Of a stretch of DNA of 45,219 nt, positions 1 to 36,642 are shown piece by piece. The notes beneath the pieces were generated by a model. That model was not told the origin of the DNA. It worked only from the letters and a program-made list of their open reading frames with translations, and made no database searches. Location: IMG/VR virus record IMGVR_UViG_2740892444_000003, positions 1 through 45,219 of that record. One strand, 5' to 3'. This DNA is from a virus. Lineage: Duplodnaviria; Heunggongvirae; Uroviricota; Caudoviricetes. Position 1 is the stretch's first letter; every line of letters begins with the position of its first letter. A program made the position numbers and the translations under genes.

Positions 1-933
1 ATGGACAACGACAAAATTGATCAACACAGCGACGAAATTGAAGTTGAGAGCGAAGAAAAAGAGCGCGGCAAAAAAATAGAAATAGATGAAGACCGACTCC
101 CCTCCCGGGCGATGGCAATTCATGAGCATATCCGCCAGGATGGTGAAAAAGAGCTGGAACGCGACGCAATGGCGCTACTGTGGTCAGCCATTGCGGCGGG
201 TCTGTCGATGGGCGCTTCGTTACTGGCAAAAGGGATATTTCATGTCGAACTGGAAGGTGTGCCGGGCAGCTTCTTACTGGAGAATCTCGGTTATACCTTT
301 GGTTTTATTATCGTCATTATGGCCCGCCAGCAATTATTTACCGAAAACACCGTGACTGCGGTACTACCCGTCATGCAAAAACCGACAATGAGCAACGTCG
401 GCTTACTTATGCGATTATGGGGCGTCGTGCTGCTGGGTAATATTCTCGGGACAGGTATTGCTGCATGGGCATTTGAATATATGCCTATCTTCAATGAAGA
501 AACTCGCGATGCATTTGTCAAAATCGGCATGGATGTGATGAAGAACACCCCCAGCGAGATGTTTGCCAACGCGATCATTTCCGGCTGGCTGATCGCCACT
601 ATGGTATGGATGTTTCCTGCAGCAGGTGCGGCAAAGATTGTGGTGATTATATTGATGACCTGGCTTATTGCCCTGGGTGACACCACCCATATCGTGGTCG
701 GTTCTGTTGAAATCCTCTATCTGGTGTTTAACGGTACGCTGCACTGGAGCGATTTCATCTGGCCCTTCGCACTACCTACTTTAGCGGGGAACATCTGCGG
801 CGGCACCTTTATCTTCGCGTTAATGAGTCATGCACAGATTCGTAACGACATGAGCAACAAGCGTAAAGCAGAAGCACGCCAAAAAGCAGAACGTGCGGAA
901 AACATTAAGAAAAATGATAAAAACCCGGCATAA
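1..933 (+). CDS. yfdC: Inner-membrane formate/nitrite-transporter-family protein YfdC (310 aa)
   Basis: Full-length ORF from the track; hydrophobic multi-helix protein recognised as E. coli YfdC, the gene that precedes argW in K-12. Confidence 0.8.
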   Translation: MDNDKIDQHSDEIEVESEEKERGKKIEIDEDRLPSRAMAIHEHIRQDGEKELERDAMALLWSAIAAGLSMGASLLAKGIFHVELEGVPGSFLLENLGYTFGFIIVIMARQQLFTENTVTAVLPVMQKPTMSNVGLLMRLWGVVLLGNILGTGIAAWAFEYMPIFNEETRDAFVKIGMDVMKNTPSEMFANAIISGWLIATMVWMFPAAGAAKIVVIILMTWLIALGDTTHIVVGSVEILYLVFNGTLHWSDFIWPFALPTLAGNICGGTFIFALMSHAQIRNDMSNKRKAEARQKAERAENIKKNDKNPA

Positions 934-1008
934 ATGGCGAGGGTTTAAGCAATCGAGCGGCAGCGTACTTACCCCGCACTCCATTAGCGGGTATACTCAT
1001 GCCGCATT

Positions 1009-1083
1009 GTCCTCTTAGTTAAATGGATATAACGAGCCCCTCCTAAGGGCTAATTGCAGGTTCGATTCCTGCAGGGGACACCA
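1009..1083 (+). tRNA. argW: tRNA-Arg (anticodon CCU), attachment site of the prophage
   Basis: 75-nt sequence GTCCTCTTAGTTAAATGGATATAACGAGCCCCTCCTAAGGGCTAATTGCAGGTTCGATTCCTGCAGGGGACACCA read directly; cloverleaf-compatible with anticodon loop CTCCTAA (CCU), T-arm GGTTCGATTCC and CCA end. Confidence 0.9.
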
Positions 1084-1244
1084 TTTATCAGTTCGCTCCC
1101 ATCCGTACCAGTCCGCAAAATTCCCTGAATATCAAGCCTTCCGTAGATTCACAGTTCGTCATGGTTCGCGTCAGATCGTTGACAGCCGCACTCCATGACG
1201 GGTAAAAAGTGGATAAAATAATTTTACCCACCGGATTTTTACCC

Positions 1245-2402
1245 ATGCTCACCGTTAAGCAGATTGAAGCAGCAAAGCCGAAAGAAAAACCATACCGCCT
1301 ACTCGATGGTAATGGACTGTACCTTTATGTCCCTGTATCCGGGAAAAAGGTATGGCAGCTTCGCTACAAGATTGACGGTAAGGAGAAAGTCCTAACCGTA
1401 GGAAAATATCCGCTAATGACTTTGCAGGAGGCAAGGGATAAGGCATGGACTGCGAGGAAAGACATCTCGGTTGGCATCGATCCGGTAAAAGCGAAAAAGG
1501 CTTCGTCTAACAACAATTCCTTTAGCGCCATTTACAAGGAATGGTACGAGCACAAGAAGCAAGTCTGGTCAGTAGGCTATGCAAATGAACTTGCCAAAAT
1601 GTTTGATGACGACATTTTACCCATCATCGGCGGCCTTGAGATTCAGGATATTGAGCCGATGCAACTGCTGGAAGTAATCCGCAGATTCGAAGATCGCGGT
1701 GCAATGGAGCGAGCCAACAAAGCCCGCAGAAGATGTGGCGAGGTTTTCCGTTACGCTATTGTCACCGGAAGGGCTAAATATAACCCAGCACCTGACCTTG
1801 CTGACGCCATGAAGGGATACCGCAAGAAGAACTTCCCGTTTCTTCCTGCAGACCAGATCCCGGCATTCAACAAAGCACTGGCAACATTTTCAGGAAGTAT
1901 CGTATCGCTCATTGCCACCAAGGTTTTGCGCTATACAGCCCTAAGAACGAAAGAGCTTCGTTCCATGCAATGGAAGAACGTCGATTTTGAAAACAGGATT
2001 ATCACCATCGACGCCAATGTGATGAAGGGACGCAAAATTCATGTGGTTCCTATGTCAGACCAGGTGGTTGAACTTCTCACTACGCTAAGCTCAATCACCA
2101 AACCAGTATCAGAGTTTGTTTTTGCCGGGCGCAACGATAAGAAGAAGCCAATCTGCGAGAATGCGGTATTGCTTGTGATCAAACAAATCGGCTATGAGGG
2201 TCTGGAAAGCGGTCACGGATTCAGGCATGAATTCAGCACGATTATGAACGAGCACGAATGGCCTGCTGATGCTATTGAAGTGCAACTGGCACATGCCAAC
2301 GGCGGATCTGTGCGCGGTATTTACAACCATGCTCAGTATCTAGATAAGCGCAGAGAAATGATGCAGTGGTGGGCGGACTGGATTGATGAAAAGGTGGAGT
2401 GA
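1245..2402 (+). CDS. intS: Tyrosine-recombinase integrase (P4-type)
   Basis: ORF immediately downstream of the tRNA; track ORF begins at a GTG at 1209, likely ATG start at 1245 (MLTVKQIEAAKP...); integrase-like C-terminal region; matches K-12 IntS from memory. Confidence 0.85.
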   Translation: MLTVKQIEAAKPKEKPYRLLDGNGLYLYVPVSGKKVWQLRYKIDGKEKVLTVGKYPLMTLQEARDKAWTARKDISVGIDPVKAKKASSNNNSFSAIYKEWYEHKKQVWSVGYANELAKMFDDDILPIIGGLEIQDIEPMQLLEVIRRFEDRGAMERANKARRRCGEVFRYAIVTGRAKYNPAPDLADAMKGYRKKNFPFLPADQIPAFNKALATFSGSIVSLIATKVLRYTALRTKELRSMQWKNVDFENRIITIDANVMKGRKIHVVPMSDQVVELLTTLSSITKPVSEFVFAGRNDKKKPICENAVLLVIKQIGYEGLESGHGFRHEFSTIMNEHEWPADAIEVQLAHANGGSVRGIYNHAQYLDKRREMMQWWADWIDEKVE

Positions 2403-2551
2403 TCCACCTTAACTATCGAAGAGCACAAAGTCTTGCAATCCAGTGCAAAGCTTTGCGTACCAGAGTTTTTCCTCATCAACTACCGCAAGTATCGATCGAT
2501 TGAGACTTGGATGATAGACTTCATGTCTTTCAGAACTCATTGATTAAATAA

Positions 2552-2914
2552 ATGTTAAAGCTATTTGCAAAGTACACCTCGATTGGTGTGCTGAACACAC
2601 TTATACACTGGGTGGTTTTTGGTGTATGTATCTATGCCGCGCATACCAATCAGGCTCTGGCAAACTTCGCAGGTTTCGTTGTGGCTGTGAGCTTTAGCTT
2701 CTTCGCGAATGCAAAATTCACATTCAAAGCATCGACTACAACGATGCGCTACATGTTATATGTCGGGTTCATGGGAACACTGAGTGCTACTGTTGGATGG
2801 GCTGCTGATAAGTGCTCGCTTCCTCCAATTATCACTCTTATCACCTTCTCCGCCATCAGCCTGGTGTGCGGTTTCGTCTATTCAAAGTTCATTGTCTTTA
2901 GGGATGCGAAATGA
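2552..2914 (+). CDS. gtrA: GtrA flippase-like bactoprenol-glucose translocase (120 aa)
   Basis: Small four-helix hydrophobic protein directly upstream of and overlapping (ATGA) the GtrB gene; canonical gtrABC organisation. Confidence 0.8.
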
Positions 2915-3840
2915 AAATTTCTTTAGTCGTTCCGGTCTTTAACGAAGAGGCCACGATACCTATTTTTTATAAAGCCGTGCGCGAATTTGAAGGGCTTCAG
3001 CAGCATGAAGTCGAGATAGTCTTCATAAACGATGGCAGCAAAGACGCTACAGAATCAATTATCAACGAGCTTGCTGTTGCCGACCCGCTTGTGGTTTCGC
3101 TGTCGTTCACACGTAACTTCGGCAAAGAACCTGCCCTGTTCGCAGGTCTGGACCATGCTACCGGGGAGGCAATTATCCCGATTGACGTTGATCTGCAAGA
3201 CCCTATCGAAGTTATTCCTCACTTGATAGAGAAATGGCAGGCCGGTGCAGATATGGTTCTGGCTAAACGCTCTGACCGCTCCACTGACAGCAGGCTGAAG
3301 CGTAAATCTGCTGAGTGGTTCTATAAACTTCATAACAAAATCAGCAACCCTCAGATAGAAGAGAATGTTGGCGACTTCCGGCTCATGTCTCGCGAAGTAG
3401 TAGAAAACATTAAGCTCATGCCAGAACGAAACCTGTTTATGAAGGGGATACTATCCTGGGTAGGTGGTAAGACAGATGTGGTTGAATACGTAAGAGCCGA
3501 AAGAGCCGCAGGAAAAAGTAAGTTTAATGGCTGGAAGCTTTGGAATCTGGCGCTTGAAGGGATAACGAGTTTTTCTACCTTCCCGCTGAGAATGTGGACG
3601 TATATCGGTCTCTTCGTAGCCGGTTGCTCATTTTTTTATGGGGCATACATGATTGTGGATACCCTTTGTTTTGGCAATCCGGTGAAGGGATATACATCGA
3701 TAATGGTATCGATGCTATTCCTTGGCGGCGTTCAGCTGATAGGTATTGGAGTGCTCGGCGAATACATTGGCCGCATTTACATCGAAACAAAGAACAGACC
3801 AAGATACATTACGAAAAGGGATAATGTTGAACATGAGTGA
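2911..3840 (+). CDS. gtrB: GtrB bactoprenol glucosyltransferase (GT2 family, 309 aa)
   Basis: N-terminal GT2 fold (VPVFNEE...DGSKD...DxD region) with C-terminal membrane helices; follows gtrA. Confidence 0.85.
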
Positions 3841-5317
3841 TTCAGCGTTAAAAAACGATAAATTCCAGCGAATTTTTAGAATTGTTTTGCCATTGTCCAT
3901 TTTATACATATCTTGGATTGTTTTTACTGGCAGACTTTACATTGATGACTTAGGCCGTTCTCTTTACGGTTATACATCGTGGGGACAGGACGGCAGGCCA
4001 GCCTCTGATCTATTAATGTCAGCCTTGAGTTTTGGCACGCCAATCCTAGACATTACACCCCTTCCCCAGATTTTATCTGTCATTGCCTTAAGTGCAGTTC
4101 TGTCACTTTGGGGGGTAAAGTATCTGCCAAGAAAAGGCACAACCTCTTCTGCTGTATGTGTTTTATATTTTATTCTATCACCATTTTTCCTTGAGAATAT
4201 CTCATATCGTTATGACTCACTACCTATGTCTTTGAGTCTTGTTGCACTATTATTGCCATATGCATTGAAGAAAAAACCTTGGTCTCCTTTTCTACATTTC
4301 ATTTCTGTTATCGCTTCCCTGTCTTTTTATCAGGCATCAATATCGTTATTCATATTACTTATGATTATTGATGTAATTCATCTTTATTTTTCTAAAAAAG
4401 ATGATTTAAGACATCTAGAAATAATCAAGTCAATTGCAATTAACACGCTTGCCTTTGCTGCTGGATTTGTTTTTTATAAGGTATTAATTGCTAGCTCCTT
4501 TGCGTCAGGCTCTTATTCTGATGAGCACTCAAAAATTATAAACGTTGACCACACCTTTTTTGATGTACTGTATAATAATACAGTTGTCATATTTACGTGG
4601 CTTTTAAACCCGCTTTATAAGTGCTCACCTTTTCTCTTTAAGGGGTGCGCATTGATCTTGCTAGTTAGCATCATAAAGATATCAATGACATCCAAAGATG
4701 TGAAATCCAGAGTTATTAACTTATTTTTACTTTCCGCCTTGATTACTGCGGGCTTTTTCTCTTGCTTTGCACACATTGCACTTCTTAAAACCCCTGTGCT
4801 AGCGCCTAGAGTATTAATATCTTTCACAGGATTCTTCCTGCTTTTTGCATACCTAGTAGTCCAAGCCTTTGAAAGTAAAAAAATTCAGCTGATACTTTTG
4901 GCCCCTGTTGTTTTTTTTAGTTTCATACTTTCATTTTCTTATGCAAACGCATCAAGCTCCCAAAAGGAGCTAGATAAATTAATTTCCACCTCAATTTATA
5001 ACGACATTTCTCATCAAGATTTGAGTTTTAAAAATGTTTTCATTCATGGCGTTATGCCAACATCGAAGCAGAGGGCATTGATAGTCGAGAGACTTCCGAT
5101 AATGAATTCTCTGATACCTATTTATTTAAATAACAATTGGTCTTGGGGGGCTATGATTCTTAAGCATTACCTTCTCGACTACAATGTGGACGCAACAATT
5201 ACAGATCCAAAAAAGGAAATCTGCTCCTTAACACCATTCTCCAGGTCTAAGGATTATTCACTATACAGCAAAGGTGATACCTTAATAGTATCATTTGATA
5301 AGACTGGATGCCGCTGA
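3824..5317 (+). CDS. Serotype-specific O-antigen glucosyltransferase (GtrC-type polytopic membrane protein)
   Basis: Long very AT-rich ORF encoding a multi-pass membrane protein directly after gtrB; the track ORF starts upstream inside gtrB, most plausible start is ATG 3824 (or 3833) with an AAGGG RBS. Confidence 0.7.
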
Positions 5318-5325
5318 TTAAAGTC

Positions 5326-8634: not shown

Positions 8635-8987
8635 TACGCCTCCGATGTAACAGTCGTTATTCCATAAAGAGTGTCGATTTCAGCGGAAAACATGACACGT
8701 CGGGTCGTGGTATCCACCGTCGTATTGAAAGAGAGGATTGATTTAACGCCCCGCGTTTCGAGGATGCGCTTACGGATCGCCAGGTTGTAGGTTTCCGGCT
8801 TCTGCTTACCGAGTACGGACTGGATCCACGGAGTCCCCTCGGTGGTGTCGAGAAACCATTGCCCATACCACAATTCGAATCGCGTTTTTACCGCCTGCGC
8901 CACGGCCTCCGGTGAGTTAATCAGCCAGGTATCATCGCCGCTGCCAAAGGTGTAATCGCCATCGGCGTCTTCACGTCTGTATCGCAT
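8634..8987 (-). CDS. Baseplate protein (gpW/gp25-like)
   Basis: 117-aa ORF between spike and J-like genes; overlapping start/stop coupling. Confidence 0.5.
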   Translation of the reverse strand: MRYRREDADGDYTFGSGDDTWLINSPEAVAQAVKTRFELWYGQWFLDTTEGTPWIQSVLGKQKPETYNLAIRKRILETRGVKSILSFNTTVDTTTRRVMFSAEIDTLYGITTVTSEA

Positions 8988-9742
8988 CAGTTAGGCGCTC
9001 CTGTGTTACCGCCGCCGGTCTGTACTCCGCCGTGCGTGTGCGTCATCAGGCTCTTACCACCAGCTTTTACATCGTTAGTCACCGTGACAGGGCCAAGCAT
9101 CGTCGCGGTGCCGCCGCTTTCGCCCATCCCCTGAGAGAGATTCCCGTTTATTGTCACGTTGCCGTTTAGCGTGATGGTGGGTGATGTGATCGTGGTTCCT
9201 CCTTCTGCTGTCGCCGTCAGCGCGCCGGGGGTTTTAACCGTGATGTTATGGCCTGCGGCCACTTCCACAAACGCAGCGCCATCATCAGTACGCAGTTGCG
9301 CGGCGCTGGTGCTGATTCCGCTGATTTTCTGCGCCTGAGACTGCGGACCGACGATACAGAACGCATCCGATAAATCATGCATTCTGTCATCAACCGTCTC
9401 CTGTATCCCGCCGCTCTGCCACCAGAAATCAATACAACGATCGGCAAAAACGACAAGACACTCATCCCCAGCCTTTACCGGAAAAGTCAACGTACAGCCT
9501 CCGCCGCGTGGGAATACCACCGGCACATCCACCAGCAGCGGGTAATTTTTGGTAACGCGATTGCCGTCGTTATCCGTTTCAACCGAACGGATAGAAGGCT
9601 GCACAACCGCCGTCACAGCGTCAGGATCGAATGACTGGACGATGCCAGGCAAAGCGACTCGGATCTGGTTCTTTGTTGTTTCCCGTTCAGATTTGAATGT
9701 TTCAGCAAGGTCGCCGCTGCGGGTCTGGTCAGATACTGCCAT
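8987..9742 (-). CDS. Baseplate assembly/spike protein (gpV-like)
   Basis: 251-aa ORF with Gly/Thr-rich C-terminal beta-repeat region typical of spike proteins; position before gpW-like gene. Confidence 0.55.
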   Translation of the reverse strand: MAVSDQTRSGDLAETFKSERETTKNQIRVALPGIVQSFDPDAVTAVVQPSIRSVETDNDGNRVTKNYPLLVDVPVVFPRGGGCTLTFPVKAGDECLVVFADRCIDFWWQSGGIQETVDDRMHDLSDAFCIVGPQSQAQKISGISTSAAQLRTDDGAAFVEVAAGHNITVKTPGALTATAEGGTTITSPTITLNGNVTINGNLSQGMGESGGTATMLGPVTVTNDVKAGGKSLMTHTHGGVQTGGGNTGAPN

Positions 9743-9761
9743 TTAGTAGGCTCCAGAAAGC

Positions 9762-9786
9762 AAAAAACCCGCCGGGTGGCGGGTTT
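9762..9786 (-). terminator. Rho-independent terminator ending the two-gene moron cassette
   Basis: On the minus strand, stem CCCGCC/GGCGGG with a 4-nt loop followed by TTTTTTG, directly after the stop of the 9785..10201 gene. Confidence 0.7.
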
Positions 9787-10201
9787 ATGAATCGTAGGTT
9801 TTCAATTTTTCGAGTTCATCAGGAGGAAGTTCTATGAAGGTTTCCTCTGCTAATTTTATCAGCCGGGGAAGCATCGAATCAGCTTGCTGATGAGCGTTTG
9901 GGCTGATGATTGCCAATATCTGATAGTGTTCATCGATATAAAGATGCTGAGCATATACCAAAAAATTATCACATGTCCGTTCACTCAGAGATGCTTCTGG
10001 AGGCCAGGGTTTATCGCCAGGTAGCTTTAAGTGAATTTTCCTGATGTTGGCAGCCATCGCATCATAGTTACGTTCAAAACCGCCTAACGAACCAAAACAC
10101 CAGAACTGGGAACCCTTTGAAATATAATCGGCAAGCATTTGAGCATACTTATGTGCTGCAGCTAAATGACGCAATTCTCCCGTGATACTGACTTTTGCCA
10201 T
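9785..10201 (-). CDS. YafO-like toxin candidate (138 aa), moron gene
   Basis: Motifs FERNYD, KIHLKL, LVYAQH, LAIISPNAH resemble the conserved blocks I recall for E. coli YafO (FGRDALYDD, HIHL, HLVYCQG, LIAILKPEPH); lower GC than flanking tail genes; start overlaps the upstream gene stop. Confidence 0.45.
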   Translation of the reverse strand: MAKVSITGELRHLAAAHKYAQMLADYISKGSQFWCFGSLGGFERNYDAMAANIRKIHLKLPGDKPWPPEASLSERTCDNFLVYAQHLYIDEHYQILAIISPNAHQQADSMLPRLIKLAEETFIELPPDELEKLKTYDS

Positions 10202-10202
10202 G

Positions 10203-10775
10203 TCACATCCATTTAGGGGCGTTGGCTCCCAGCATCTTATGCGATGTTGAGATCAGTTCAATAGCCTCTTCACGGGTAACATTATCTGACAAGAGTTCAG
10301 CCTGGAAAGGCTGCGATTGCCTAACTTCAGCGGCCAACTGAGTTGCAGTGTTCTCGACGGCGGTCAACGCACGAACATATTTGCGTTTTAATGGGCGCAA
10401 CATTTGCAGATGGCCTTGCCACATAGGGGACCTTTCCGCTTCAGAGAACATATCCACTAAATGTCCTTTAGCATTTCGGCATGCCTTGGCAAGACCTTCG
10501 AGATGGGATAAAAACCCTTCCGGAAGCTCATCAACAATGATTCTCCCATTTCGAAAAGCTTCGAGATGAGACATGCCTTCCTTCGCGGTATTTTCGATTT
10601 CTTGAGCGCGTGCAGCAATCGCGGTACAACGACGAAATGCCTCTTCAGCATCTAATCGTTGTGGCAGTTCACAAGCATTAGAGATCAGGGGTTTGAAAGC
10701 ACCGTTAACAGCTTCCTGAACCTGATTCATTTGTTGTGTAATTGTTGCCAGCGCAAATGCGTAGCTAATCGCCAT
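10203..10775 (-). CDS. Hypothetical alpha-helical protein (190 aa), upstream partner of the YafO-like gene
   Basis: ORF with GAGGGA RBS before ATG at 10775 (track ORF begins 2 codons earlier at TTG); no recognisable domain; coupled to the downstream toxin-like gene. Confidence 0.5.
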   Translation of the reverse strand: MAISYAFALATITQQMNQVQEAVNGAFKPLISNACELPQRLDAEEAFRRCTAIAARAQEIENTAKEGMSHLEAFRNGRIIVDELPEGFLSHLEGLAKACRNAKGHLVDMFSEAERSPMWQGHLQMLRPLKRKYVRALTAVENTATQLAAEVRQSQPFQAELLSDNVTREEAIELISTSHKMLGANAPKWM

Positions 10776-10781
10776 ACCCAA

Positions 10782-10943
10782 TCCCTCTGTCGTTTTAAAC
10801 GACTATACACCACTTATTCAAAGTTAGCTGAGCGCTAAAAGTTCGCAAAGTTTAGTGATCATGCAACCACCTAGCAAGCGATAAAAAATCATTATTTAGT
10901 GAATGTGAACAAACTCAACACTATGCAGAAATGTAACTTTTGG
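10782..10943 (-). promoter_or_regulatory. AT-rich intergenic region, probable promoter of the moron cassette
   Basis: 162-bp AT-rich gap inside an otherwise tightly packed, translationally coupled tail operon, immediately upstream of the cassette. Confidence 0.35.
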
Positions 10944-11276
10944 TTAACCAGAAACCTTTTTGCATGGAAAGGAACCGATGATTTTCGGCGCATCCATGCT
11001 GTTCTGCAGCAGTTGGACATTCAGGAAAGCTTTTCCGTTACGTTTCACAAACTCAAAGCCGTAATTGTTACCATCACGGGAAGGCATCAGGCCCATGTCC
11101 ATTTTTATGTTTGAATAGTCACCATCTTTTCCCAGAAATTTTATCTTCTGTGATGTGACAGTTTCACCGTTAATAACAGTCATTCCGTCACCGGTCATCG
11201 TGTAGTTGCCGCACTGAATTGCAGCCATCGCCGGAGCAGTAACCATCATAACTAACGCCAAACATAACCGTTTCAT
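10944..11276 (-). CDS. Small secreted protein with Sec signal peptide (about 110 aa)
   Basis: N-terminus MKRLCLALVMMVTAPAMA followed by a soluble domain; start overlaps the stop of the gpD-like gene. Confidence 0.5.
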   Translation of the reverse strand: MKRLCLALVMMVTAPAMAAIQCGNYTMTGDGMTVINGETVTSQKIKFLGKDGDYSNIKMDMGLMPSRDGNNYGFEFVKRNGKAFLNVQLLQNSMDAPKIIGSFPCKKVSG

Positions 11277-12340
11277 TAAAGCCCTCTTTCCCTCGCTGAT
11301 GAGGAAACAAGATCCGCCGCGCCACGCGCTTCGCACATCATATCCATGTACCACGCCTGGCCCCTTGTATCGCCAGTGTACATAATCCCGCGCACAATAT
11401 AAACGCCATCCGTTGCGATGCTGGCAGGCTGCGATGTGGTGCCGCTTAGCGTGATATTTCCATCCGTGTTCTGGTCGGTGATCTGACCACCAGCCATCGC
11501 AATATCGTTGTTCGACAAGGCGGTACGATACACGGAAGCCTGATCCAGCTGAATAAGTCCGTTAACCCGGATGTTCGGATTAATAAGCGCGCGGACGTTT
11601 ACGCCGTTACCGATAGTCTGCTGCGGCATGCCAATAAGCCCGGTAGCGCTGTTGAGCACAATCGCTTCATGAACATATTCGTTATTCGCCACCATCTGGC
11701 GCTGACCGTCCACGAATTGCCATGTTGCGCCACATTGCCCGGCTACGTTATCCATTAGATGCCGCGTCATGCCAAAGAGTACCCGCCCCCGGGGGAATAC
11801 AGTAGCAGGCATTTCAGGCGTCAGGCCTTCGGTCGCGCCTTTGGCTTCGAAGTCTTTCATCAGCGCACGGTTTACATCAGCGACCGTGTAACCGGCAGCC
11901 AGCGTCTGTGAGGTTATACTGGTGGCAAAAGCCAGATCAGTATCTGCTGCCTGAATCAGGACGTAGGAATCAACCGGACTGTCTTTTCCTGTGACCGAGT
12001 AGCGAATTTCACCGCTGAAAATCAGTCCGTAGTTGCGGCCATCACTCTGACCCACGTCCGCCGCGTCAACTTCCCGCACGGTCCCGACGTCGCTTGCCGA
12101 CACCTCCGGCGCGATACCGTCGTAACCGGCAATCAGACGCACTTTCGAAAACTCCTGCCCGGTGATTCGGTTCACAGTATCTGCCGAGAGGTTATAAATT
12201 TTGATAGTCCCTACCCGGGACGCGCTGCTGATGTTGAACCAGTCGATCGTAAAGGTGACTTTAAAATCACTTAGCTCAATTCCCTGACCGTTCCCGTCCA
12301 CAAGCTGCAGCTCGAAATGTCTCATCCAGTTCTGTGACAT
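11276..12340 (-). CDS. Tail protein (P2 gpD-like)
   Basis: 354-aa ORF in the T-U-X-D order after the tape measure gene. Confidence 0.5.
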   Translation of the reverse strand: MSQNWMRHFELQLVDGNGQGIELSDFKVTFTIDWFNISSASRVGTIKIYNLSADTVNRITGQEFSKVRLIAGYDGIAPEVSASDVGTVREVDAADVGQSDGRNYGLIFSGEIRYSVTGKDSPVDSYVLIQAADTDLAFATSITSQTLAAGYTVADVNRALMKDFEAKGATEGLTPEMPATVFPRGRVLFGMTRHLMDNVAGQCGATWQFVDGQRQMVANNEYVHEAIVLNSATGLIGMPQQTIGNGVNVRALINPNIRVNGLIQLDQASVYRTALSNNDIAMAGGQITDQNTDGNITLSGTTSQPASIATDGVYIVRGIMYTGDTRGQAWYMDMMCEARGAADLVSSSARERGL

Positions 12341-12645: not shown

Positions 12646-13232
12646 TATCCGCCTCCCAGTAATGACGCCACGTTACCCGTGATGCTTTTCAGCAGTGAAG
12701 TATCTGGAGGCTTTGTGGTTTTGTTGCCGCTATTCTGTACCGCCGACGTGCTGGCCCCTTCCTTCATGTTGGTTTTATCCGCGACGGTAATCTGCTGTGT
12801 CCGGGAGATAATGACCTCCCTCAGGGTGAGGACGGCGGACAGGACGTTTTCGGTTGTCTTGTCCGTCGTCACTTCCAGCGCCCGGATCAACATGTTGCTG
12901 TACAGCCGTTTACCGGTTACCACATCGAAGGGGATACGGCTTTCCTGCAGATCCAGTAGCTCCTGATACGTCTGCTGAGGACTCAGGCCGAGCAGGCTGG
13001 TAGCCGTCAGATTACTGGCAAAATCCAGCAATGCGCCGCCACCGGCGAAACCAACCTCCATCACCACTTCTGACGGTTTTTTATAGGCATGATCAGCGAC
13101 AGCGGCCCCAACCTCTACCGGATGCTCTGTTATTTCAAGCATATCTGTATGCTTCTCTGAAATAACAACACTGGGAACAATCATTCCTATTTTTCTGCTC
13201 TGCTGATGAAAAAGTGTAGAGAGAATATCCAC
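12645..13232 (-). CDS. Tail protein (gpU-like)
   Basis: 195-aa ORF immediately after the tape measure gene; apparent GTG start. Confidence 0.4.
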   Translation of the reverse strand: MDILSTLFHQQSRKIGMIVPSVVISEKHTDMLEITEHPVEVGAAVADHAYKKPSEVVMEVGFAGGGALLDFASNLTATSLLGLSPQQTYQELLDLQESRIPFDVVTGKRLYSNMLIRALEVTTDKTTENVLSAVLTLREVIISRTQQITVADKTNMKEGASTSAVQNSGNKTTKPPDTSLLKSITGNVASLLGGG

Positions 13233-15220
13233 TAACCCACCCTCACCTGATTACTTCGCATGACCTGAGCATTTGCAGACTGTTGCCGACGTGCAACCTC
13301 ATTACCGACAGCGTGCGGATCTCCGCCACCGTAAATGTGGTAAGTATTTTGCTGGTTAACCTCTGTCATTTTGCCACTAATTCCCGCCACGGCAGCCTTA
13401 TTAATCAGCTCTCGAGAATAGATATTTCTTCCATTTTCATGCTGGATAATGCTGCTCATCAATGCTGACATGGTTTGCGGATCGCTCATATTCAGGGCAG
13501 CCCGGGGATCCACTCCCAGTCGTTGCGATACAGCCCTGATATACGCAGTTGTGTTGTTATTATCAGACGCAGGTGCCCAGGTAGAGATAATTTTCTCCAC
13601 GCTGTTTATTCCCCGTCCGGCGTACAACATTAACTGACGAGCAAGAGCCCGTAATCCATCAAAAGCAGTTTCAAATCTGGCAAATCGCCCGCCCGGGCGT
13701 TCAAGAGAAGCCCCTGCCTGACCAGCAAAATTAAGGTTTCCCGGATTGTTATTCCGTTCTCCTCGTTTCGTAGCCTGTGCATATTGTTCCGGCTCATCAT
13801 CACCAAACCAGCCGCGTACCGTCCGGCCCACACTGCGGGGATCGAATCCCCAGTGCTCTTTAATCCAGTCGGCAGTACTGTTAGCGCTGTCTGTAACCAT
13901 CGGCATCGCTGACGGATTTTCGCTGCCCTGATTAAGTATCTGTTTGCCGATGCTGACGGCATCAGCCCAGCGGCCATCTTTGATAGCGTTGAGCAGGTCG
14001 GCGATCATGTTCAGCATTTTGCTGAATTCGCCCATCTGGTCGATGAAGTTGCTGAAATCCCACTTCAGGGACCATGATTTGGGGTCAATATTGAGCAGTT
14101 TCGCCAGCGCTTTCGCCAGTTCATTAACAGACCCTTTCAGGTCACGAACCATCTTCAGCGCGGCATCGACCTCCGGCTTCCACTTGCCCCAGTCAATCAG
14201 GCTGTCGCCGCCTTCCTTCCAGGTCTGATAGTCCTCCCACAGAAGGGCAATCCCCGCCGCCAGCGCGGTAATGAGGCCAATCGGCGACATCCAGAACGTA
14301 CTGTTCAGAATGCGCAGCGCAATCGTCAGCGCGCCAAACAGCGAGATGAGCTCCCGCGTTTGCTTATCCAGCGATTGCCACCAGGTGATGAGGCCTGATG
14401 TTCCTTCAATCAGTCTGAAGAACAGCCGCCCGATAATATCCCCGAGCGCCAGAATGCCTTTTATGGCTTTCGTCAGGGTCTGCTCGATACGCGGGAGGTT
14501 GTCCAGGATATGGCGGCGCAGAGTGTCCAGCGAACCCGCAAGCCCACCCGCAAGATTAGAGCCGATTTTGTCACGGGCCATGCCTGCCATCGCGCCAAAC
14601 TCACGCAGGGAGGTCATAAATTTGTTGGAGCTTCTGGCCGCCTCGTCAGCATTGAAGCCGATAGCTTTCGCCATTGCGCTGTACTGCCCGGAGAAATCAC
14701 CCACACCCCGGCGCATCGCCATGAGGGTATTTTCGTCAATGCCCAGCATCTGCGCATACTGGTTAGCCCGGTAATACGGCATGCTGCTGAGCTTCTGTCC
14801 GACACCCGTAAAGATAGCGGCCATGTCACGCATGTTACCGCTGGCATCACGGGTCTGTACGCCCAGGCGATTCAGAAAGCCTTCTGCACCGGGATTGTTG
14901 CGAATAAACCGGGAGAGGCTTTCCAGAGAAGAGCGCGCAGCGTCCACGCTGCCGCCAACCTGCGAAACCGCATAGCCAATAGACTGAATCCCCTGAACCG
15001 TCGCGCCGGTGCGCTGTGACGCCCAGTAGAGATTATCCAGACCGGAGGCGATCTTAGCCGTGAAGGCCACCACGGACAGCGCAGCTCCTTCAACAGCCAG
15101 CCCCATTTTGATGACATTTGCAGTTGTACCGGCGAGGACAGAACCGAACTTTTTCGCTCCTGCATCATCCACACTGAAGCCAAGCGAGACGAGGAAATCT
15201 TTAATAGTTTCAGCGTTCAT
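13232..15220 (-). CDS. Tail tape measure protein
   Basis: Long ORF rich in Ala/Gly/Leu helical segments located after the chaperone gene; track start is TTG at 15241, ATG with GGAGAGAGG RBS at 15220. Confidence 0.75.
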   Translation of the reverse strand: MNAETIKDFLVSLGFSVDDAGAKKFGSVLAGTTANVIKMGLAVEGAALSVVAFTAKIASGLDNLYWASQRTGATVQGIQSIGYAVSQVGGSVDAARSSLESLSRFIRNNPGAEGFLNRLGVQTRDASGNMRDMAAIFTGVGQKLSSMPYYRANQYAQMLGIDENTLMAMRRGVGDFSGQYSAMAKAIGFNADEAARSSNKFMTSLREFGAMAGMARDKIGSNLAGGLAGSLDTLRRHILDNLPRIEQTLTKAIKGILALGDIIGRLFFRLIEGTSGLITWWQSLDKQTRELISLFGALTIALRILNSTFWMSPIGLITALAAGIALLWEDYQTWKEGGDSLIDWGKWKPEVDAALKMVRDLKGSVNELAKALAKLLNIDPKSWSLKWDFSNFIDQMGEFSKMLNMIADLLNAIKDGRWADAVSIGKQILNQGSENPSAMPMVTDSANSTADWIKEHWGFDPRSVGRTVRGWFGDDEPEQYAQATKRGERNNNPGNLNFAGQAGASLERPGGRFARFETAFDGLRALARQLMLYAGRGINSVEKIISTWAPASDNNNTTAYIRAVSQRLGVDPRAALNMSDPQTMSALMSSIIQHENGRNIYSRELINKAAVAGISGKMTEVNQQNTYHIYGGGDPHAVGNEVARRQQSANAQVMRSNQVRVG

Positions 15221-15397
15221 TATCCTCTCTCCATTTCTCAATGCGCCGCTGGTTATCCGCTTTTACCGCCAGATGGTCATTCAAGAGAGCAATGTCGTAC
15301 AAATCGACAGAGCCATCTTTAAGTGCTGTATAAGGAATTAACCCGGCGTCAACCGGATTGAGAAGGTAAGACAGCCCGTCCGGCAGGCTGTTAAACG

Positions 15398-25965: not shown

Positions 25966-26517
25966 TTAGCCCATCATTTTTTTATACGCTTCTGCAGCCT
26001 GCTCCGGCGTTAAGTTGGTAATTTCTGTTCTGACTGGTCCTCCGTCAGCACCAGTCACTTCATTTTTGACGTTGTCTTTAAACGCCTGAACAGAAACATG
26101 ACGCCCGAGCAACTCAAGGTTTTTAACCTTATCAGGCCATTTGATTTTCTTCAGGAGAGCAGCACTATCTGCTGATGCCATCTCGACGACATCCATTCCT
26201 GATAGCGTTGTACGCCACACCTTAGGCCAGTCTTTAATGGGCTTCAGTTCGCCATTGGCAAGCAGAATGTCAAGCACGTCCATCTGATCGATTTCAATAA
26301 GGCGATTAAGTACATATTCTGCATTAATACTAACAAGATCATTGCGTTGCGCTTTCAGTTCGGCGATTCTTAACTTGATGTCAGGTTTTGACAGGTTTTC
26401 GGATGCGGTACGGTTAGCTGTCTTTGCGCTGTACCCCGCCCGAATAGCCGCTTGCGTGGCGTTTAAATCGATGAGGTACTCGCGACAGAACATTTCTTGC
26501 TTGTCGGTGAGTGCCAT
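25966..26517 (-). CDS. Terminase small subunit
   Basis: 183-aa ORF beginning [15 protein letters not shown]...[12 protein letters not shown], an HTH-containing N-terminus typical of small terminase subunits. Confidence 0.7.
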
Positions 26518-26541
26518 AGTTTTCTCTAGAGGATTTCTTTA

Positions 26542-26778
26542 ATGAACTCAAAGCAAATTTTTTACCGAAATACAGGTCATGATAATGAAACTTATATATT
26601 CCTGGACAAATTGGACAATGGCTCCTACCAAGTCAGGGCTGGTCATTCGTCACCTGTGAGCCATTTTGAATGGAAGGGTGATGAAACCATTCAGACAGTG
26701 GAAGAGTTTCTAGGTTCTAACCCATCATATACTGAACGTGTTCATCAACTAATTTCTGAGTTTGAAGCAGAATCGTAA
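26542..26778 (+). CDS. Hypothetical small protein (78 aa) encoded opposite to the late operon
   Basis: ORF with GAGGA RBS 9 nt upstream of ATG; lower GC than flanks; no recognisable family. Confidence 0.35.
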   Translation: MNSKQIFYRNTGHDNETYIFLDKLDNGSYQVRAGHSSPVSHFEWKGDETIQTVEEFLGSNPSYTERVHQLISEFEAES

Positions 26779-27199
26779 TCACCACCCAAGCGACTCAACT
26801 GATATCTAGTTCATCATTACTAGGACTAAAAGTAGATTCCTGACATTGAGAACCTCTTTATCCGCTTGTGGGGATATCAGTTAAGTTATCCCGTGTAGGG
26901 TATAAGCCATTGTCGAGACCACTCATTGAATGGCCTCTGCAATAACCGATGTCTTTCCATCAGTCCGCCACCACAAAGAATCTTTTTTGCCATAAGGCAG
27001 GAGGTTCATCTTTCAGTGGCTGCCAGTGTTATTTCCCCACTTACTGGCTTGGGTTGTTTCGCTGTACTGCCGTTAACTGGTGGCGCACAGATTTAGTTAA
27101 ATCCGTTCTCGCATGATCCAGCTTTTACATACCTGGATTGTGAGGGATGTAAATCACGGTTTCATTATCAAGCCCACCAGTAGATGGGCTTTGTAATGG

Positions 27200-27457
27200 C
27201 TACTTCGCTTTTGCTTCCGCTCGCTTACGCCGGCGCTCTTCTTTCCTCTCGGCTTTTGCCATGTCCATGAATGCCTGCATGATCGAGTTACGCATCATGT
27301 AGCTAACAAAGTGATGATTGACACAGCCGTTGAGGCGCAGCTGCTCGCCAAACTCATCCACCGAGGCCAATGCTTCCATCATGCCCTTCTCGCCTTTCAT
27401 GAACTCTGAGAAGTCGCGCCCCGCTCTGGAGGCGCATTCAATAACACGATCACTCAT
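27200..27457 (-). CDS. Hypothetical protein (85 aa) with basic C-terminus
   Basis: ORF coupled to the upstream KilA-N gene (start overlaps its stop); C-terminal KEERRRKRAEAKAK. Confidence 0.45.
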   Translation of the reverse strand: MSDRVIECASRAGRDFSEFMKGEKGMMEALASVDEFGEQLRLNGCVNHHFVSYMMRNSIMQAFMDMAKAERKEERRRKRAEAKAK

Positions 27458-27951
27458 CCCGGAAGCCCGGGGATCGTAATCTGCAGCTGGTTAGCCAGGG
27501 AGTTAATCTCAGCGACCAACACTGGCTTCGTATAGCGCCATGCTGCCAGCCCTTGTCCGCAGAAGCTCGCCATGTCTTTCTTCTGGTCAAACTCATGACA
27601 TTTCATGTTGAGCTGCGCACTTAAGCTGTTGCGATGCTGAAGTTCTCCGGTGAAGTAGTCATCGAGGACTTTATAGGCCGCGTACTTGAACCCGGGGTTT
27701 AACCAAGCCGCATAATCGTAAGCAACAAACTTCCCGCCATATGTTCCACCGTGTACACCGCGCTCAGTAAAAACCACAGATTCGTGGTTTTTCTCCAGCT
27801 CGGCTAAGAACTCTTTGGTCTGCTTGTTTCGCAGGTAGTGGTACGGAGATTCAGATTCACTTTTACCACTGGCTTTCCACATATCAGTGAGGCAGATCAT
27901 TCCTGATTCATCAACACGGATCGGTGTATTAAAAAGCGTGATTGCTTTCAT
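27454..27951 (-). CDS. KilA-N domain protein
   Basis: 166-aa ORF (ATG at 27951; track ORF extends to 27987) with sequence pattern recognised as a KilA-N DNA-binding domain. Confidence 0.5.
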   Translation of the reverse strand: MKAITLFNTPIRVDESGMICLTDMWKASGKSESESPYHYLRNKQTKEFLAELEKNHESVVFTERGVHGGTYGGKFVAYDYAAWLNPGFKYAAYKVLDDYFTGELQHRNSLSAQLNMKCHEFDQKKDMASFCGQGLAAWRYTKPVLVAEINSLANQLQITIPGLPG

Positions 27952-28093
27952 AGCGTCTTTACCTTTTAGAAAGTGAGCCTGTCTCACAGAAAAGCCGCCC
28001 GAGAGAGGTCGCCACCTATAACGGCATTTCTCAGGCTCGCTTACTGAAAGGCTCTCGTTAATATGCGCGTGAGATGCGCGTTTACTGCGGACA

Positions 28094-28120
28094 TAAAAAA
28101 GCCCCGCTTTTCGCGAGGCT
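28094..28120 (-). terminator. Probable intrinsic terminator downstream of the lysis cassette
   Basis: On the minus strand, AGCCTCGCG-AAAA-GCGGGGCT hairpin (one mismatch) followed by TTTTTT. Confidence 0.5.
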
Positions 28121-28151
28121 CATTAAATTGACTTTGTGATTTGCAAAAAAA

Positions 28152-28589
28152 TTATTTCAGGCACTGAGTCCTGATGTACTCCTGCAGGTAGTTAACCTGC
28201 GCGGTTATCCTGTCGATTCCACTTCGGAGACGGTAATAATTGAGTTCAGCATCTGCTGTAAGTCTTGGGCTTTCTCCATCGCCCATGCTGCTGGCTCCGG
28301 CCGTTGACTTTGCACAGGTGGCGGCGACTTGCAGGCGCTTACGACCAGCAGAAACATCAGCACGGAGACTTTCGATAGTAGCGTTAGCATCAGCAAGCTC
28401 CTTTGTGTATCTGGCGTCAAGTTCTGCTACATCACGTTGACGCTTCTGCATATCAGCGATGATGGACGTGGCTTTATCGCGCTGTTCTTTATAGGCGATG
28501 GCGTTATCACGGTAATGATTAACAGCCCATGACAGGCAGACGATGATGCAAATAACCAGAGCGGAGATAATCGCGGTTACTCTGCTCAT
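28152..28589 (-). CDS. Rz: Rz i-spanin
   Basis: 145-aa ORF with N-terminal TM helix and coiled-coil body, overlapping the endolysin stop; lambda-like. Confidence 0.8.
28205..28390 (-). CDS. Rz1: Rz1 o-spanin lipoprotein embedded in Rz (+1 frame)
   Basis: Embedded ORF with signal peptide and lipobox (LLVVSAC) followed by a proline-rich stretch ([13 protein letters not shown]); start at internal ATG chosen. Confidence 0.65.
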
Positions 28590-29062
28590 ACCTCAATCTC
28601 TCTGACCGTTCCGCCAGCCTCTTTGAATTTTGCAATCAGGCTGTCAGCCTTATGCTCGAACTGACCATAACCAGCGCCCGGAAGTGAAGCCCAGATATTG
28701 CTGCAACGGTCAATTGCCTGACGAATATCACCGCGATCAATCATTGGTAAAGCGCCACGCTCTTTAATCTGTTGCAGTGCCACAGCGTCCTGGCTTTTGG
28801 GGGAGAAGTCTTTCAGGCCAAGCTGCTTACGGTAGGCATCCCACCAACGTGAAAGAAGCTGATAGCGACCGGCGGCTGTTGATTTGAGTTTGGGGTTTAG
28901 CGTGACAAGTTTGCGAGGGTGATCTGAGTAATCAGTGAATAGCTCTCCGCCTACAATGACGTCATAACCATGATTTCTGGTTTTCTGACGTCCGTTATCA
29001 GTTCCCTCTGACCATGCCAGCATATCGAGGAACGCCTTACGTTGATTATTGATTCCCACCAT
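28586..29062 (-). CDS. R: Endolysin (lambda R-type lytic transglycosylase)
   Basis: 158-aa protein nearly identical over its length to lambda R as I recall it ([53 protein letters not shown]...). Confidence 0.9.
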
Positions 29063-29369
29063 CTTCTACTCCGGCTTTTTTAGCAGCGAAGCGTTTGATA
29101 AGCGAACCAATCGAGTCAGTACCGATGTAGCCGATGAACACGCTCGTTATATAAGCGAGATTGCTACTTAGTCCGGCGAAGCCGAGAAGGTCACGAATGA
29201 ACCAGGCGATAATGGCGCACATCGTTGCGTCGATTACTGTTTTTGTAAACGCACCACCATTATATCTGCCGCGAAGGTACGCCATTGCAAACGCAAGGAT
29301 TGCCCCGATGCCTTGTTCCTTTGCCGCGAGAATGGCGGCTAACAGGTCATTTTTTTCTGGCATCTTCAT
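29046..29369 (-). CDS. S: Holin (lambda S-type, dual-start MKM motif)
   Basis: 107-aa protein beginning MKMPEK with three TM segments; near-identical to lambda S as recalled. Confidence 0.9.
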
Positions 29370-29828
29370 GTCTTACCCCCAATAAGGGGATTTGCTCTAT
29401 TTAATTAGGAATATGGTCGGTTACTGATAGAACAAATCCAGGCTACTGTGTTTAGTAATCAGATTTGTTCGTGACCGATATGCACGGGCAAAACGGCAGG
29501 AGGTTGTTAGCGCAACCTCTTGCCACCCGCTTTCACGAAGGTCATGTGTAGAAGGCCGCAGCGTAACTATCACTGATGAATTCAGGATAGCCAGTGGCTA
29601 CGGCTCAGTTTGGGTTGTGGCGGCCGGAATCGAACCGGCTTCCATCGGTGCGCTGCCGATTGCAGTACGCGCGGCGGTCAGCTACATGACTAGTATTTCA
29701 CTGTCGCCTATCTGCTAGCTCGCCATTGAGCTTCACCACAACGATAAGAGCACTGCGCGGCACCTTTCACCAATTCCGCGAGGTCTGCGGGTTCAATGCT
29801 CTTACCTGTTGTGCAAACAAAAAAAGCC

Positions 29829-29860
29829 ACCGTTGCAACTTAAGAGTCACTAACGGCAGC
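29829..29860 (-). terminator. Possible terminator/hairpin just downstream of Q
   Basis: Minus-strand palindrome around GTTGCAACGGTGGC followed by TTTTTTTG about 45 nt after the Q stop. Confidence 0.3.
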
Positions 29861-29877
29861 TTACCTTCTAATTATGG

Positions 29878-30396
29878 CTAAATGGATAATTGCATGTCAA
29901 GGCTTTTAACAGCAACATGCTTAACTTTCTCAACACGTTTACGCATTTTGAAAGCATTTTGCATTGGCTGGTACAAAACAAATAACGACGCTTTCAGGAT
30001 GTCGTCAATTTCGTTTCTACAGGTTGCCAGTGAAGGTTTTCTCCATCCCTCGCCACCACGTCCACACATCTTGCGTGGCTTTGCAGTCGCGTGATAGTAG
30101 GATGCAATTGCTCGCTTAGATGAACCATGAGCGTAGTAGCTGAGGAGGATGCCAAAGGCTTTCTTGTCAATGTACATGACGGAATCGACGACCTGAGAAA
30201 TCAACATTCCATCATCATCATTGCACATTGGCCTTGTCATAACTCTTCCCGGCTCTACGCTCTCCATGAACTTCGCTATTACGCTGCTCATGCGCTTTTC
30301 CAGACGACCTGAATAAACCCATGCGCCCCACAGTTCAAGCCAGCAATTCAGCCAATCGTGCTGTTCTTTGGTGAGGTTTAGCTCTCTTATGCTCAT
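29878..30396 (-). CDS. Late-gene antiterminator Q (QuuD/phage 82 Q-like)
   Basis: 172-aa ORF upstream of the lysis cassette; sequence recognised as close to E. coli DLP12 QuuD. Confidence 0.75.
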   Translation of the reverse strand: MSIRELNLTKEQHDWLNCWLELWGAWVYSGRLEKRMSSVIAKFMESVEPGRVMTRPMCNDDDGMLISQVVDSVMYIDKKAFGILLSYYAHGSSKRAIASYYHATAKPRKMCGRGGEGWRKPSLATCRNEIDDILKASLFVLYQPMQNAFKMRKRVEKVKHVAVKSLDMQLSI

Positions 30397-30581
30397 CGTC
30401 TTCCCCTTTTGCCCTGTTTGACCATCAGGACGCCGTTAACTATTACGTGACGCTCGCCTTTTCTGTCTCGGTTGTACTTGAGCACTGTTCCTCTTGCGCA
30501 GGAAAGCATCCTCGCCACTTCGGTCTGATTGCCTCGCGTCTGGATAAGAAGCTCTGGTATCGTTTGAATTGTGGCATTCAT
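30393..30581 (-). CDS. ninH: NinH-like protein
   Basis: 62-aa ORF with motif GNQTEVARML.C.RGTV.KY resembling lambda NinH. Confidence 0.6.
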   Translation of the reverse strand: MNATIQTIPELLIQTRGNQTEVARMLSCARGTVLKYNRDRKGERHVIVNGVLMVKQGKRGRR

Positions 30582-30940
30582 ACGTTCTCCAGTTCGGTGA
30601 TTTTTATTCCAAGCCTTCCGCCTGGTACTTTCACGCCACGAATTACGCGAATGTCATCGAATTGCTCGTCGTCTTCCGCAAATCCGGCGTGGATAAGGGA
30701 GTCGAGTAAACCTTTCAGGATGTTGTCGAGGTCGCGGCGGCGGGAGTCTGGAACGTCTGCGATGACTTTGATGCGGAGTCGTGATTTGGTGAAAATGTCT
30801 AACTTAAGTTGGCGGATGATTTGCTGAACGTCTTTTCGGTATTTCTGGCCTTTATCGCTTATGTAATATTGGCTTCCCCGTCTTCGCCAGTAGGTGTTCA
30901 CCGACGGCGGGTATGGAAGCACAAACTGATATTCGTTCAT
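30578..30940 (-). CDS. rusA: Holliday-junction resolvase RusA
   Basis: 120-aa ORF with PDxRRRDLDN motif characteristic of RusA. Confidence 0.8.
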   Translation of the reverse strand: MNEYQFVLPYPPSVNTYWRRRGSQYYISDKGQKYRKDVQQIIRQLKLDIFTKSRLRIKVIADVPDSRRRDLDNILKGLLDSLIHAGFAEDDEQFDDIRVIRGVKVPGGRLGIKITELENV

Positions 30941-32494: not shown

Positions 32495-32496
32495 TG

Positions 32497-32673
32497 TCAC
32501 TTCCTCGCACGATGTCTTAGCCACCGGATATCCCACAGGTGAGCCGTGTAATTGAAGGTTTTTACGTCAGATTCTTTTGGGATTGGCTTGCGTTTATTTC
32601 TGGAGCGTTTCGTTGGAAGGTATTTGCAGTTTTCGCAGATGATGTCAGTGATGCTTCGTCGCTGTCGTCTCAT
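32497..32673 (-). CDS. ninE: NinE-like small protein
   Basis: 58-aa ORF from internal ATG ([23 protein letters not shown]...), recognised as NinE-like; overlaps the Dam gene stop by 4 nt. Confidence 0.4.
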
Positions 32674-36635: not shown

Positions 36636-36642
36636 GGGTTAC

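Follow-up and report, generated by a model that had tools for sequence, protein, structure and literature searches.

We analyzed a 45,219-nucleotide stretch of a tailed-phage genome (Caudoviricetes; IMG/VR record IMGVR_UViG_2740892444_000003, positions 1 to 45,219; this whole stretch is called the window below) and found a two-gene cassette in its baseplate operon, between the hub gene and the spike gene. The cassette encodes a 138-amino-acid (aa) toxin candidate of the YafO family, which has the RelE/BECR fold (positions 9785-10201), and, upstream of it in the direction of transcription, a 190-aa partner that is the candidate antitoxin (10203-10775); these and the other relevant genes of the region are all on the minus strand. 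We propose that the cassette is probably a mobile moron expressed in the lysogen, and that it carries a type II-like toxin-antitoxin pair in which a YafO-family ribonuclease (RNase) is joined to a new all-alpha antitoxin candidate that replaces YafN. The toxin half is already annotated by the NCBI pipeline, and morons in tail operons are textbook knowledge (PMC3594210). The new findings are the partner family, its strict yet mobile linkage to this YafO clade, and a defined cargo slot between hub and spike.

The partner gene and a YafO-like gene are adjacent in all 57 loci that carry the partner, which come from public genome and assembly records, IMG/VR viral contigs and the Escherichia coli strain BY63, and also in two distant loci, L059 and L060. 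This linkage persists down to 19-36% identity in the partner and 43-50% identity in the toxin candidate, and the spacer between the genes is 0-1 nucleotides (nt) in all measured loci but one. In the window it is 1 nt (TGA C ATG), so the two genes do not overlap as a first-pass annotation of the sequence had them do. The pair stays together in different Enterobacterales genera and phage types. With the partner upstream and the genes bicistronic, coupled and co-inherited, its organization is that of a generic type II toxin-antitoxin system.

Both genes are under purifying selection, with ratios of nonsynonymous to synonymous change (dN/dS) against the closest informative relatives of 0.05-0.06 for the partner and 0.04 for the toxin candidate. 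At larger distances, the partner carries more nonsynonymous change than the toxin candidate in 13 of 15 comparisons. A faster-diverging partner gene is commonly seen for antitoxins.

The toxin candidate and its partner

The 138-aa protein scores 62.6 bits in the Pfam family PF13957 (YafO_toxin), for which the cut-off is 25 (E = 4e-17), and it aligns to positions 12-98 of the 101-position profile. This bears out the YafO block pattern that the first-pass annotation had recognized. Identical copies are annotated as 'YafO family toxin' by the NCBI Prokaryotic Genome Annotation Pipeline (PGAP). In an alignment of 41 family members that takes in the canonical 132-134-aa YafO proteins, His57 and Thr76 are invariant and Arg75, Pro101 and His104 are at least 90% conserved; all five are kept in the 138-aa protein, and we infer that these conserved residues are catalytic. 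Its confident predicted model has its best fold matches in HigB2, HigB, HigB1, YafQ and RelE, a RelE-like fold shared with the ribosome-dependent mRNA interferases RelE, HigB and YafQ. Profile and model thus both point to a genuine YafO-family member with the RelE fold, which would be expected to be toxic.

The protein is not an E. coli YafO carried by a phage. Against the NCBIfam equivalog NF007377, it fails the test for orthology to K-12 YafO (31.4 bits, cut-off 153). It belongs to a separate phage-borne clade whose members are 136-138 aa long and extend about 15 residues beyond the C-terminus of canonical YafO. No solved structure was detectable by sequence for any member of the YafO family. 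E. coli YafO is toxic, is neutralized by YafN and cuts mRNA that is being translated (PMC2814082), but its dependence on the ribosome has been called into question (PMC8546651).

Compared with E. coli yafNO, the pair has the same PF13957 toxin with the conserved His, Arg-Thr and His positions, the same tight coupling and the same order with the antitoxin gene first (PMC2814082, PMC11980606), an order that has been reported for PF_YafO (PMC11980606). There are also differences. The toxin candidate is only 25% identical to E. coli YafO and has the C-terminal extension, and yafNO lies in the SOS-regulated dinB operon whereas the cassette pair is phage-borne. Moreover, YafN is a 97-aa autoregulator of the yafNO promoter (PMC2814082), whereas the partner here is a 190-aa, all-alpha and unrelated protein.

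The first-pass annotation had already judged the partner to be about twice the size of YafN and to have no recognizable DNA-binding fold, and our searches agree. The partner has no match in Pfam, NCBIfam or PADLOC, no DNA-binding domain and no sequence relative in the PDB; in PHROGs it is phrog_35514, a family of unknown function. Among 5.8 billion proteins, a word-indexed search returned 35 partner clusters, all from Enterobacterales, and an exhaustive profile search of 1.84 billion representatives returned just 14 matches, so the partner forms a genuine orphan family. Its AlphaFold 2 model (mean per-residue confidence, pLDDT, 76.9) consists of four long helices forming a four-helix bundle plus a C-terminal helix. 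Four residues, Trp119, Arg135, Ser178 and the penultimate Trp189, do not vary even among relatives of 19-22% identity. The C-terminal segment is conserved yet poorly ordered in the model, and we suspect that this tail (residues ~166-190) is the likeliest toxin-binding element.

Structure comparison, which the first-pass annotation had proposed for both proteins, thus placed the toxin candidate among HigB, YafQ and RelE folds and gave only generic matches for the partner bundle, with the secretion chaperones FlgN and FliT and a pyocin baseplate helical protein. Several more specific assignments of the partner were considered and rejected. A relationship to YafN is not apparent (best E = 0.44). 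A HEPN domain was suggested by the four-helix bundle and an R100-x4-H105 string, but the family does not conserve this string, and neither profile nor fold comparison gave a HEPN match. Weak matches to DUF3335 (E = 0.036) and phosphotransferase system enzyme I (E = 0.5) were not reproduced with family members or with the profile.

A parallel for such a pair is paaR2-paaA2-parE2 of E. coli O157 prophages, in which a prophage-borne toxin of the RelE/ParE superfamily is likewise paired with an antitoxin that has no DNA-binding domain. PaaA2, however, is a small, largely disordered helical peptide with a separate regulator gene, whereas the partner here is a 190-aa folded bundle and no regulator travels with the pair. 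If the partner is confirmed as the neutralizer, it would add a new antitoxin family without a DNA-binding domain to the RelE/ParE toxin network, and it would provide a handle on YafO, a family with no solved structure and a disputed ribosome dependence.

A mobile unit with its own expression signals

The pair occurs in five phage contexts, four of them inside tail gene clusters. The first is the hub-spike junction of this myovirus lineage. The others are a slot between the tail-chaperone and tape-measure genes, which is the slot of the gp15 moron of HK97 (PMC3594210); a position behind the tape measure gene in the Flyfo siphovirus Tbat2_3; a position between lambda-like M and L genes in Sodalis; and, on one metagenomic contig (L059), a position directly downstream of a cI-like helix-turn-helix repressor gene on the same strand, away from any tail genes. 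The distant pair on this contig (L059 648-2142; 192 aa and 136 aa) lies directly behind the repressor gene and has no promoter footprint of the kind described below. Its layout recalls rexAB behind cI in lambda.

Several observations argue that the cassette moves as a unit. In this myovirus lineage, cassettes sharing at least 98% identity are flanked by spike genes of 60-98% identity and by 110-aa genes of 57-72% identity, and near-identical cassettes between diverged flanks point to recent exchange. Nucleotide homology to cassettes in foreign contexts runs from window position ~10857 (10854-10859) to ~9754, and the horizontally shared unit is about 1.1 kb (~10877-9754). The first-pass annotation had drawn the unit as 9762-10943; the cassette is real, but what is shared is shorter. 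Among 5426 complete E. coli genomes, about 353 carry the hub-spike backbone, and 37 of these ~353 carry the cassette (0.7% of all genomes), always whole, at full length and at least 98.6% identical. It is absent from Salmonella phage SEN34 and Escherichia phage vB_EcoM-606R2.

The cassette is also compositionally foreign. Its GC content is 44.6% compared to 52.4% in the tail flanks, as the first-pass annotation had seen, and GC at third codon positions is 37-42% compared to ~58-63% in most adjoining tail genes, with the gpJ-like gene (46.5%) as an exception. Deviant GC, a promoter footprint and terminator of its own, and absence from related phages are the features by which Juhala and Hendrix recognized morons (PMC3594210), and the cassette has all of them, with promoter activity presumed from the footprint. 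By these comparisons, the cassette is a horizontally mobile two-gene moron in a variable slot, self-contained and compositionally foreign as the first-pass annotation had proposed. Most related tail modules lack it, and it occurs in unrelated ones. Conservation of the pair in all related tail modules without compositional deviation, which that annotation had named as evidence to the contrary, is not what the ~353 backbones show. The HK97 gene 15 moron is a close precedent, since it too is transcribed independently in a tail operon, from its own promoter to its own terminator, and has deviant GC (Juhala and Hendrix; Cumby et al.; PMC3594210), but it encodes a single inner-membrane exclusion protein, whereas the cargo here is a two-gene toxin/partner pair.

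We searched the same tail position in related prophages, and backbones without the cassette have other cargo there. In E. coli TL20 (L061 828-1956) the slot holds a toxin-antitoxin-like pair, a 258-aa protein overlapping a HEPN-like 123-aa protein; in PI24 (L062 1114-1686) a DUF2335 membrane protein; in vB_EcoM-606R2 (L002 2979-3491) a 170-aa protein of unknown function; and in SEN34 (L003 3085-3501) a membrane-anchored 138-aa protein. Annotations of other genomes place DUF4282, DUF4236 and HMG-box proteins in the same slot. A fixed slot with many exchanged cargos, some of them toxin-antitoxin-like pairs, resembles the variable anti-phage hot spots that P2-like phages and P4 satellites carry (Rousset et al. 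2022, PMC9122126). Those hot spots, however, lie next to cos and in another lineage, whereas here the slot is the hub-spike junction of a baseplate operon, none of the cargos seen has a PADLOC match, and a defense role would be by analogy. The uncharacterized inserts of the slot (the HEPN pair, DUF2335, DUF4282 and others) are nonetheless a candidate list for phage-defense screening.

The gap upstream of the partner gene contains a conserved pattern. The partner reading frame is open from a TTG (10203-10781), but PGAP and all homologs start at the ATG at 10775, which gives 190 aa. Measured from the end of the upstream 110-aa gene at 10944, the noncoding gap is 162 base pairs (bp) to the TTG, the length given in the first-pass annotation, and 168 bp to the ATG; it is AT-rich as described there (36.9% GC). 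Within it lie, on the minus strand, a -35-like hexamer TTGCTA (10872-10877) and a -10-like hexamer TAAACT (10849-10854) followed by a conserved TTGCG. Of 23 distinct upstream regions taken from diverse phage contexts, 22 have the general pattern TTGNNN, 17-18 nt, TA(A/C)ACT with a freely variable spacer sequence, and the only region without it is that of the copy behind the cI-like repressor. The distance from this footprint to the partner ATG is ~100-107 nt (129 nt in L005). This conservation is best read as the phylogenetic footprint of a sigma-70-type promoter, which would be active in the lysogen. A different site found by consensus scanning, 10918-10891, was rejected as the promoter because cassettes in other contexts do not share it, whereas they do share the footprint at 10877-10849. 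In PI24, upstream of the DUF2335 cargo (L062 ~1700-1800), we observed TTGTCT, 17 nt, TAAACT and then CTGCG, which suggests a promoter module common to different morons of the slot.

Between the putative promoter and the partner gene, two small leader hairpins stand out. Hairpin 1 (UUAGC-gcuca-GCUAA, 10824-10838, minus strand) has a folding energy of -4.5 kcal/mol (z = -2.8), and its five core pairs form in nearly all of 15 aligned leaders. It shows both-sided changes at three pairs (for example, GC to UA three times), a covariation score that none of 500 shuffles reached. Different stems occupy its position in L004, L010, L054 and L060. Hairpin 2 (GUCGUU-uaa-AACGAC, 10789-10803, minus strand; -5.7 kcal/mol, z = -3.4) lies just 5' of the partner gene's Shine-Dalgarno sequence, AGAGGG (10783-10788), which reads AGAGGG, GAGG or AAGGGG across the aligned leaders. 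In hairpin 2, 93% of alignment cells pair and changes are from U-A to U-G only; this tolerance of G.U fits an RNA hairpin on the minus strand. Covariation in the alignment lends modest support to the leader hairpins. The idea that the leader forms one stable RNA structure was rejected, as the whole fold is no better than shuffles (z = -0.03), and an Rfam search of 9600-11100 gave only sub-threshold matches, nearly all at the terminator hairpin.

In L004 (~4950-4990), L005, L010 and L054, hairpin 2 is replaced by a GC-rich hairpin and T-run, an intrinsic-terminator-like element between promoter and partner gene. The corresponding hairpin of the window's group is weak and AU-rich and has no T-run. 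The terminator-like version could be an attenuator or the source of a short RNA.

Behind the toxin candidate, abutting its stop codon, is an intrinsic terminator (9786-9765, minus strand) with a 9-bp stem containing six GC pairs and then a U-run (-15.6 kcal/mol, z = -2.8); the spike gene begins 22 nt further on. No other terminator-like site of the late region on this strand is as strong, and the first-pass annotation was right to call the terminator strong. It is not specific to the cassette in this lineage, however. The terminator is followed by a conserved GCUUUCUG (together 9754-9786, minus strand), and comparison of the window with L002, L003, L061 and L062 shows the same terminator and GCTTTCTGGAGCCTAC preceding the spike gene whatever the cargo. 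Because it is independent of cargo in this lineage, the terminator is as much a boundary of the slot as a part of the cassette, and it may serve as a homology patch for cargo exchange. In most contexts a terminator follows the toxin stop codon, with compensatory stem changes in the siphovirus contexts, where similar terminators (...GGCGGGTTTTTTGCTTTCTG) lie behind the YafO-like gene. Some siphovirus contexts (L004 6063-6359, L005 6406-6738, L041 and L054) have the cassette without a terminator; a promoter-like sequence and a small lipoprotein gene (for example, MKKVILGVVAALLLSGC...) lie behind the toxin gene there, and this gene is probably a second moron.

The first-pass annotation had also pointed out that a terminator inside the late operon would call for Q-dependent read-through to the downstream genes. 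The window encodes a Q-family antiterminator upstream on the same strand (29878-30396, minus strand; PF06530, E = 1.3e-25), 98% identical to an E. coli BY63 protein annotated by PGAP as 'antiterminator Q family protein'. Q-dependent read-through is established for lambdoid late transcription. With a Q antiterminator encoded, read-through of the terminator during lytic growth is plausible by this analogy.

Alternative explanations and proposed role

We propose the following model for the cassette. In the lysogen, the pair would be transcribed from its own sigma-70-type promoter, with transcription stopping at the terminator ahead of the spike gene; in the lytic cycle, RNA polymerase modified by Q would pass this terminator. 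The L059 pair behind a cI-like repressor gene on the same strand is an indirect hint of lysogen expression, a further feature in the definition of morons. The partner would be translated first and the toxin candidate would be translationally coupled to it through the 1-nt spacer, so that the partner is never in deficit. By analogy with E. coli YafO, the toxin would be an endoribonuclease that cuts mRNA and halts translation, and the 190-aa four-helix-bundle protein would take the place of YafN as its cognate neutralizer, presumably through direct binding.

Natural variants bear on this model. In one complete E. coli genome (L066) the toxin gene is frameshifted and the partner is intact, and in a Salmonella contig (L064) a deletion takes most of both genes; both variants fit toxin-antitoxin logic. 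In a third locus (L065), on a contig assembled automatically from raw reads, the frameshift is in the partner gene and the toxin gene is intact, and this locus is ambiguous. It may reflect an assembly error, or the remaining C-terminal 73-aa open reading frame may be enough for neutralization.

This last locus, if real, is one of several points that weigh against a toxin-antitoxin pair in a moron with its own promoter. The partner has no homology to known antitoxins and no DNA-binding domain for autoregulation. The toxin candidate is acidic (isoelectric point 5.8), unlike many RelE-type RNases. Both promoter hexamers match the consensus weakly, at four of six positions each, and a standard scan chose another site. 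Searches of PADLOC-DB v2 at E <= 0.1 returned no defense-model match for the toxin candidate, the partner or the 110-aa protein, and five alternative slot cargos gave no PADLOC match either, so that 'defense hot spot' could be applied to the slot only by analogy with the P2/P4 hot spots.

If the pair is a toxin-antitoxin moron, its most likely role would be abortive infection or exclusion of superinfecting phages. Stabilization of the cassette or prophage by addiction would be about half as likely a role. A more ambitious version of the model holds that the partner is both a new class of antitoxin and a phage sensor, which frees the YafO-type RNase on meeting a component of an invading phage; the cassette would then be a new abortive-infection system of prophages, missing from present defense catalogs, that moves among tail-operon slots in unrelated phages of Enterobacterales. 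We regard this version as possible but doubtful. The findings do not overturn current ideas; they extend known moron and toxin-antitoxin themes.

An alternative is that the pair is a two-component effector rather than a toxin-antitoxin system, in which a YafO-fold RNase is inert alone and the 190-aa protein is its required sensor or activator. There is precedent in the PARIS proteins AriA and AriB of prophage hot spots, for which either deletion is nontoxic and defense is lost (PMC9122126). This arrangement would suit a partner that resembles no antitoxin and is a sizeable folded helical domain instead of a short disordered neutralizing peptide, as well as the strict linkage and the purifying selection on both genes, and it would make the broken partner and intact toxin of L065 harmless. 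However, gene order (antitoxin first), coupling across 1 nt and faster evolution of the upstream gene together form the classic type II signature, E. coli YafO is toxic alone (PMC2814082) and its conserved residues are kept here, and a toxin-inactivated variant with an intact partner exists in a complete genome. We consider the effector arrangement unlikely.

We also considered that the cassette is a functionless or decaying passenger, or that the YafO fold serves an unrelated role without nuclease activity. The decayed copies L064 and L066, the rarity of the cassette among E. coli genomes and the lack of defense-database matches would agree with this. It is hard to reconcile with dN/dS values near 0.05 for both genes, with 37 of 37 full-length E. 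coli copies, with the retention of the family-invariant His, Arg-Thr and His, and with conservation of the unit across Enterobacterales genera and phage types, and we judge it improbable.

Finally, a virion-associated effector, with the YafO-like protein delivered by the tail into the infected cell and the 190-aa protein as its chaperone or immunity protein, is very improbable: four of the five contexts do lie in tail clusters (beside spike, tape measure or M/L genes), the partner superposes generically on FlgN, FliT and the pyocin protein, and some cargo proteins of Pseudomonas tailocin clusters, one of which has a YafO-like gene, are particle-associated (PMC4684702), but the cassette is foreign in composition and comes with a promoter footprint and terminator of its own, in one context it directly follows a cI-like repressor gene, away from any tail genes on the contig, sister phages have unrelated cargo in the same slot, the tail-chaperone/tape-measure slot is a known moron site (PMC3594210), and neither protein matches a virion-family profile; placement of both proteins in structural virion families is what the first-pass annotation had singled out as contrary to its proposal.

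The surrounding prophage

The window is an E. coli prophage with a lambda-like early region and a myovirus tail module akin to those of Salmonella phage SEN34 (Brunovirus) and vB_EcoM-606R2-type Escherichia phages. Positions 9700-11400 are 100% identical in five complete genomes, strain BY63 among them. BY63 is collinear with the window over 1-26502, at 98.8% identity; from 26500 to 45219 the comparison with BY63 (L063) gives shorter matching blocks in a mosaic early region. With collinearity confined to 1-26502 and this mosaic beyond it, the window comes from a different strain with a recombinant prophage.

In the order of transcription, the region encodes the tape measure (13232-15241, minus strand), a Dit-like baseplate protein, a plug protein, the baseplate hub (11276-12340, minus strand), a 110-aa protein (10944-11276, minus strand), the gap, the 190-aa partner, the 138-aa toxin candidate, the terminator and the spike with its GpV apex motif (8987-9742, minus strand). 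Hub and spike are the left and right flanks of the slot. The first-pass annotation had correctly placed the cassette between these gpD-like and gpV-like genes; it had made no mention of the 110-aa gene before the gap, whose ATG overlaps the hub stop codon and which is thereby translationally coupled to the hub.

This 110-aa gene (phrog_3443) is the constant left neighbor of the slot and lies outside the cassette. Its product has an N-terminal signal peptide, MKRLCLALVMMVTAPAMA, and a relative's copy is named 'STY1065/STY2022 family phage-derived protein' by PGAP. It is next to the slot in all relatives, including those with other cargo, at 57-72% identity compared to 95-99% for the hub, and its GC content is also low (43.8%). 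The gene may be an older moron or encode a diversifying periplasmic protein.

The prophage end (window 1-5320), for which gene names are borrowed from the annotation of the 98.8%-identical BY63 region, contains, besides tRNA-Arg(CCT) at 1009-1083 and an intS-type integrase, a cluster of three bactoprenol glucosyl-transferase/glycosyltransferase genes. This cluster, for O-antigen modification, is another lysogenic-conversion cargo of the prophage.

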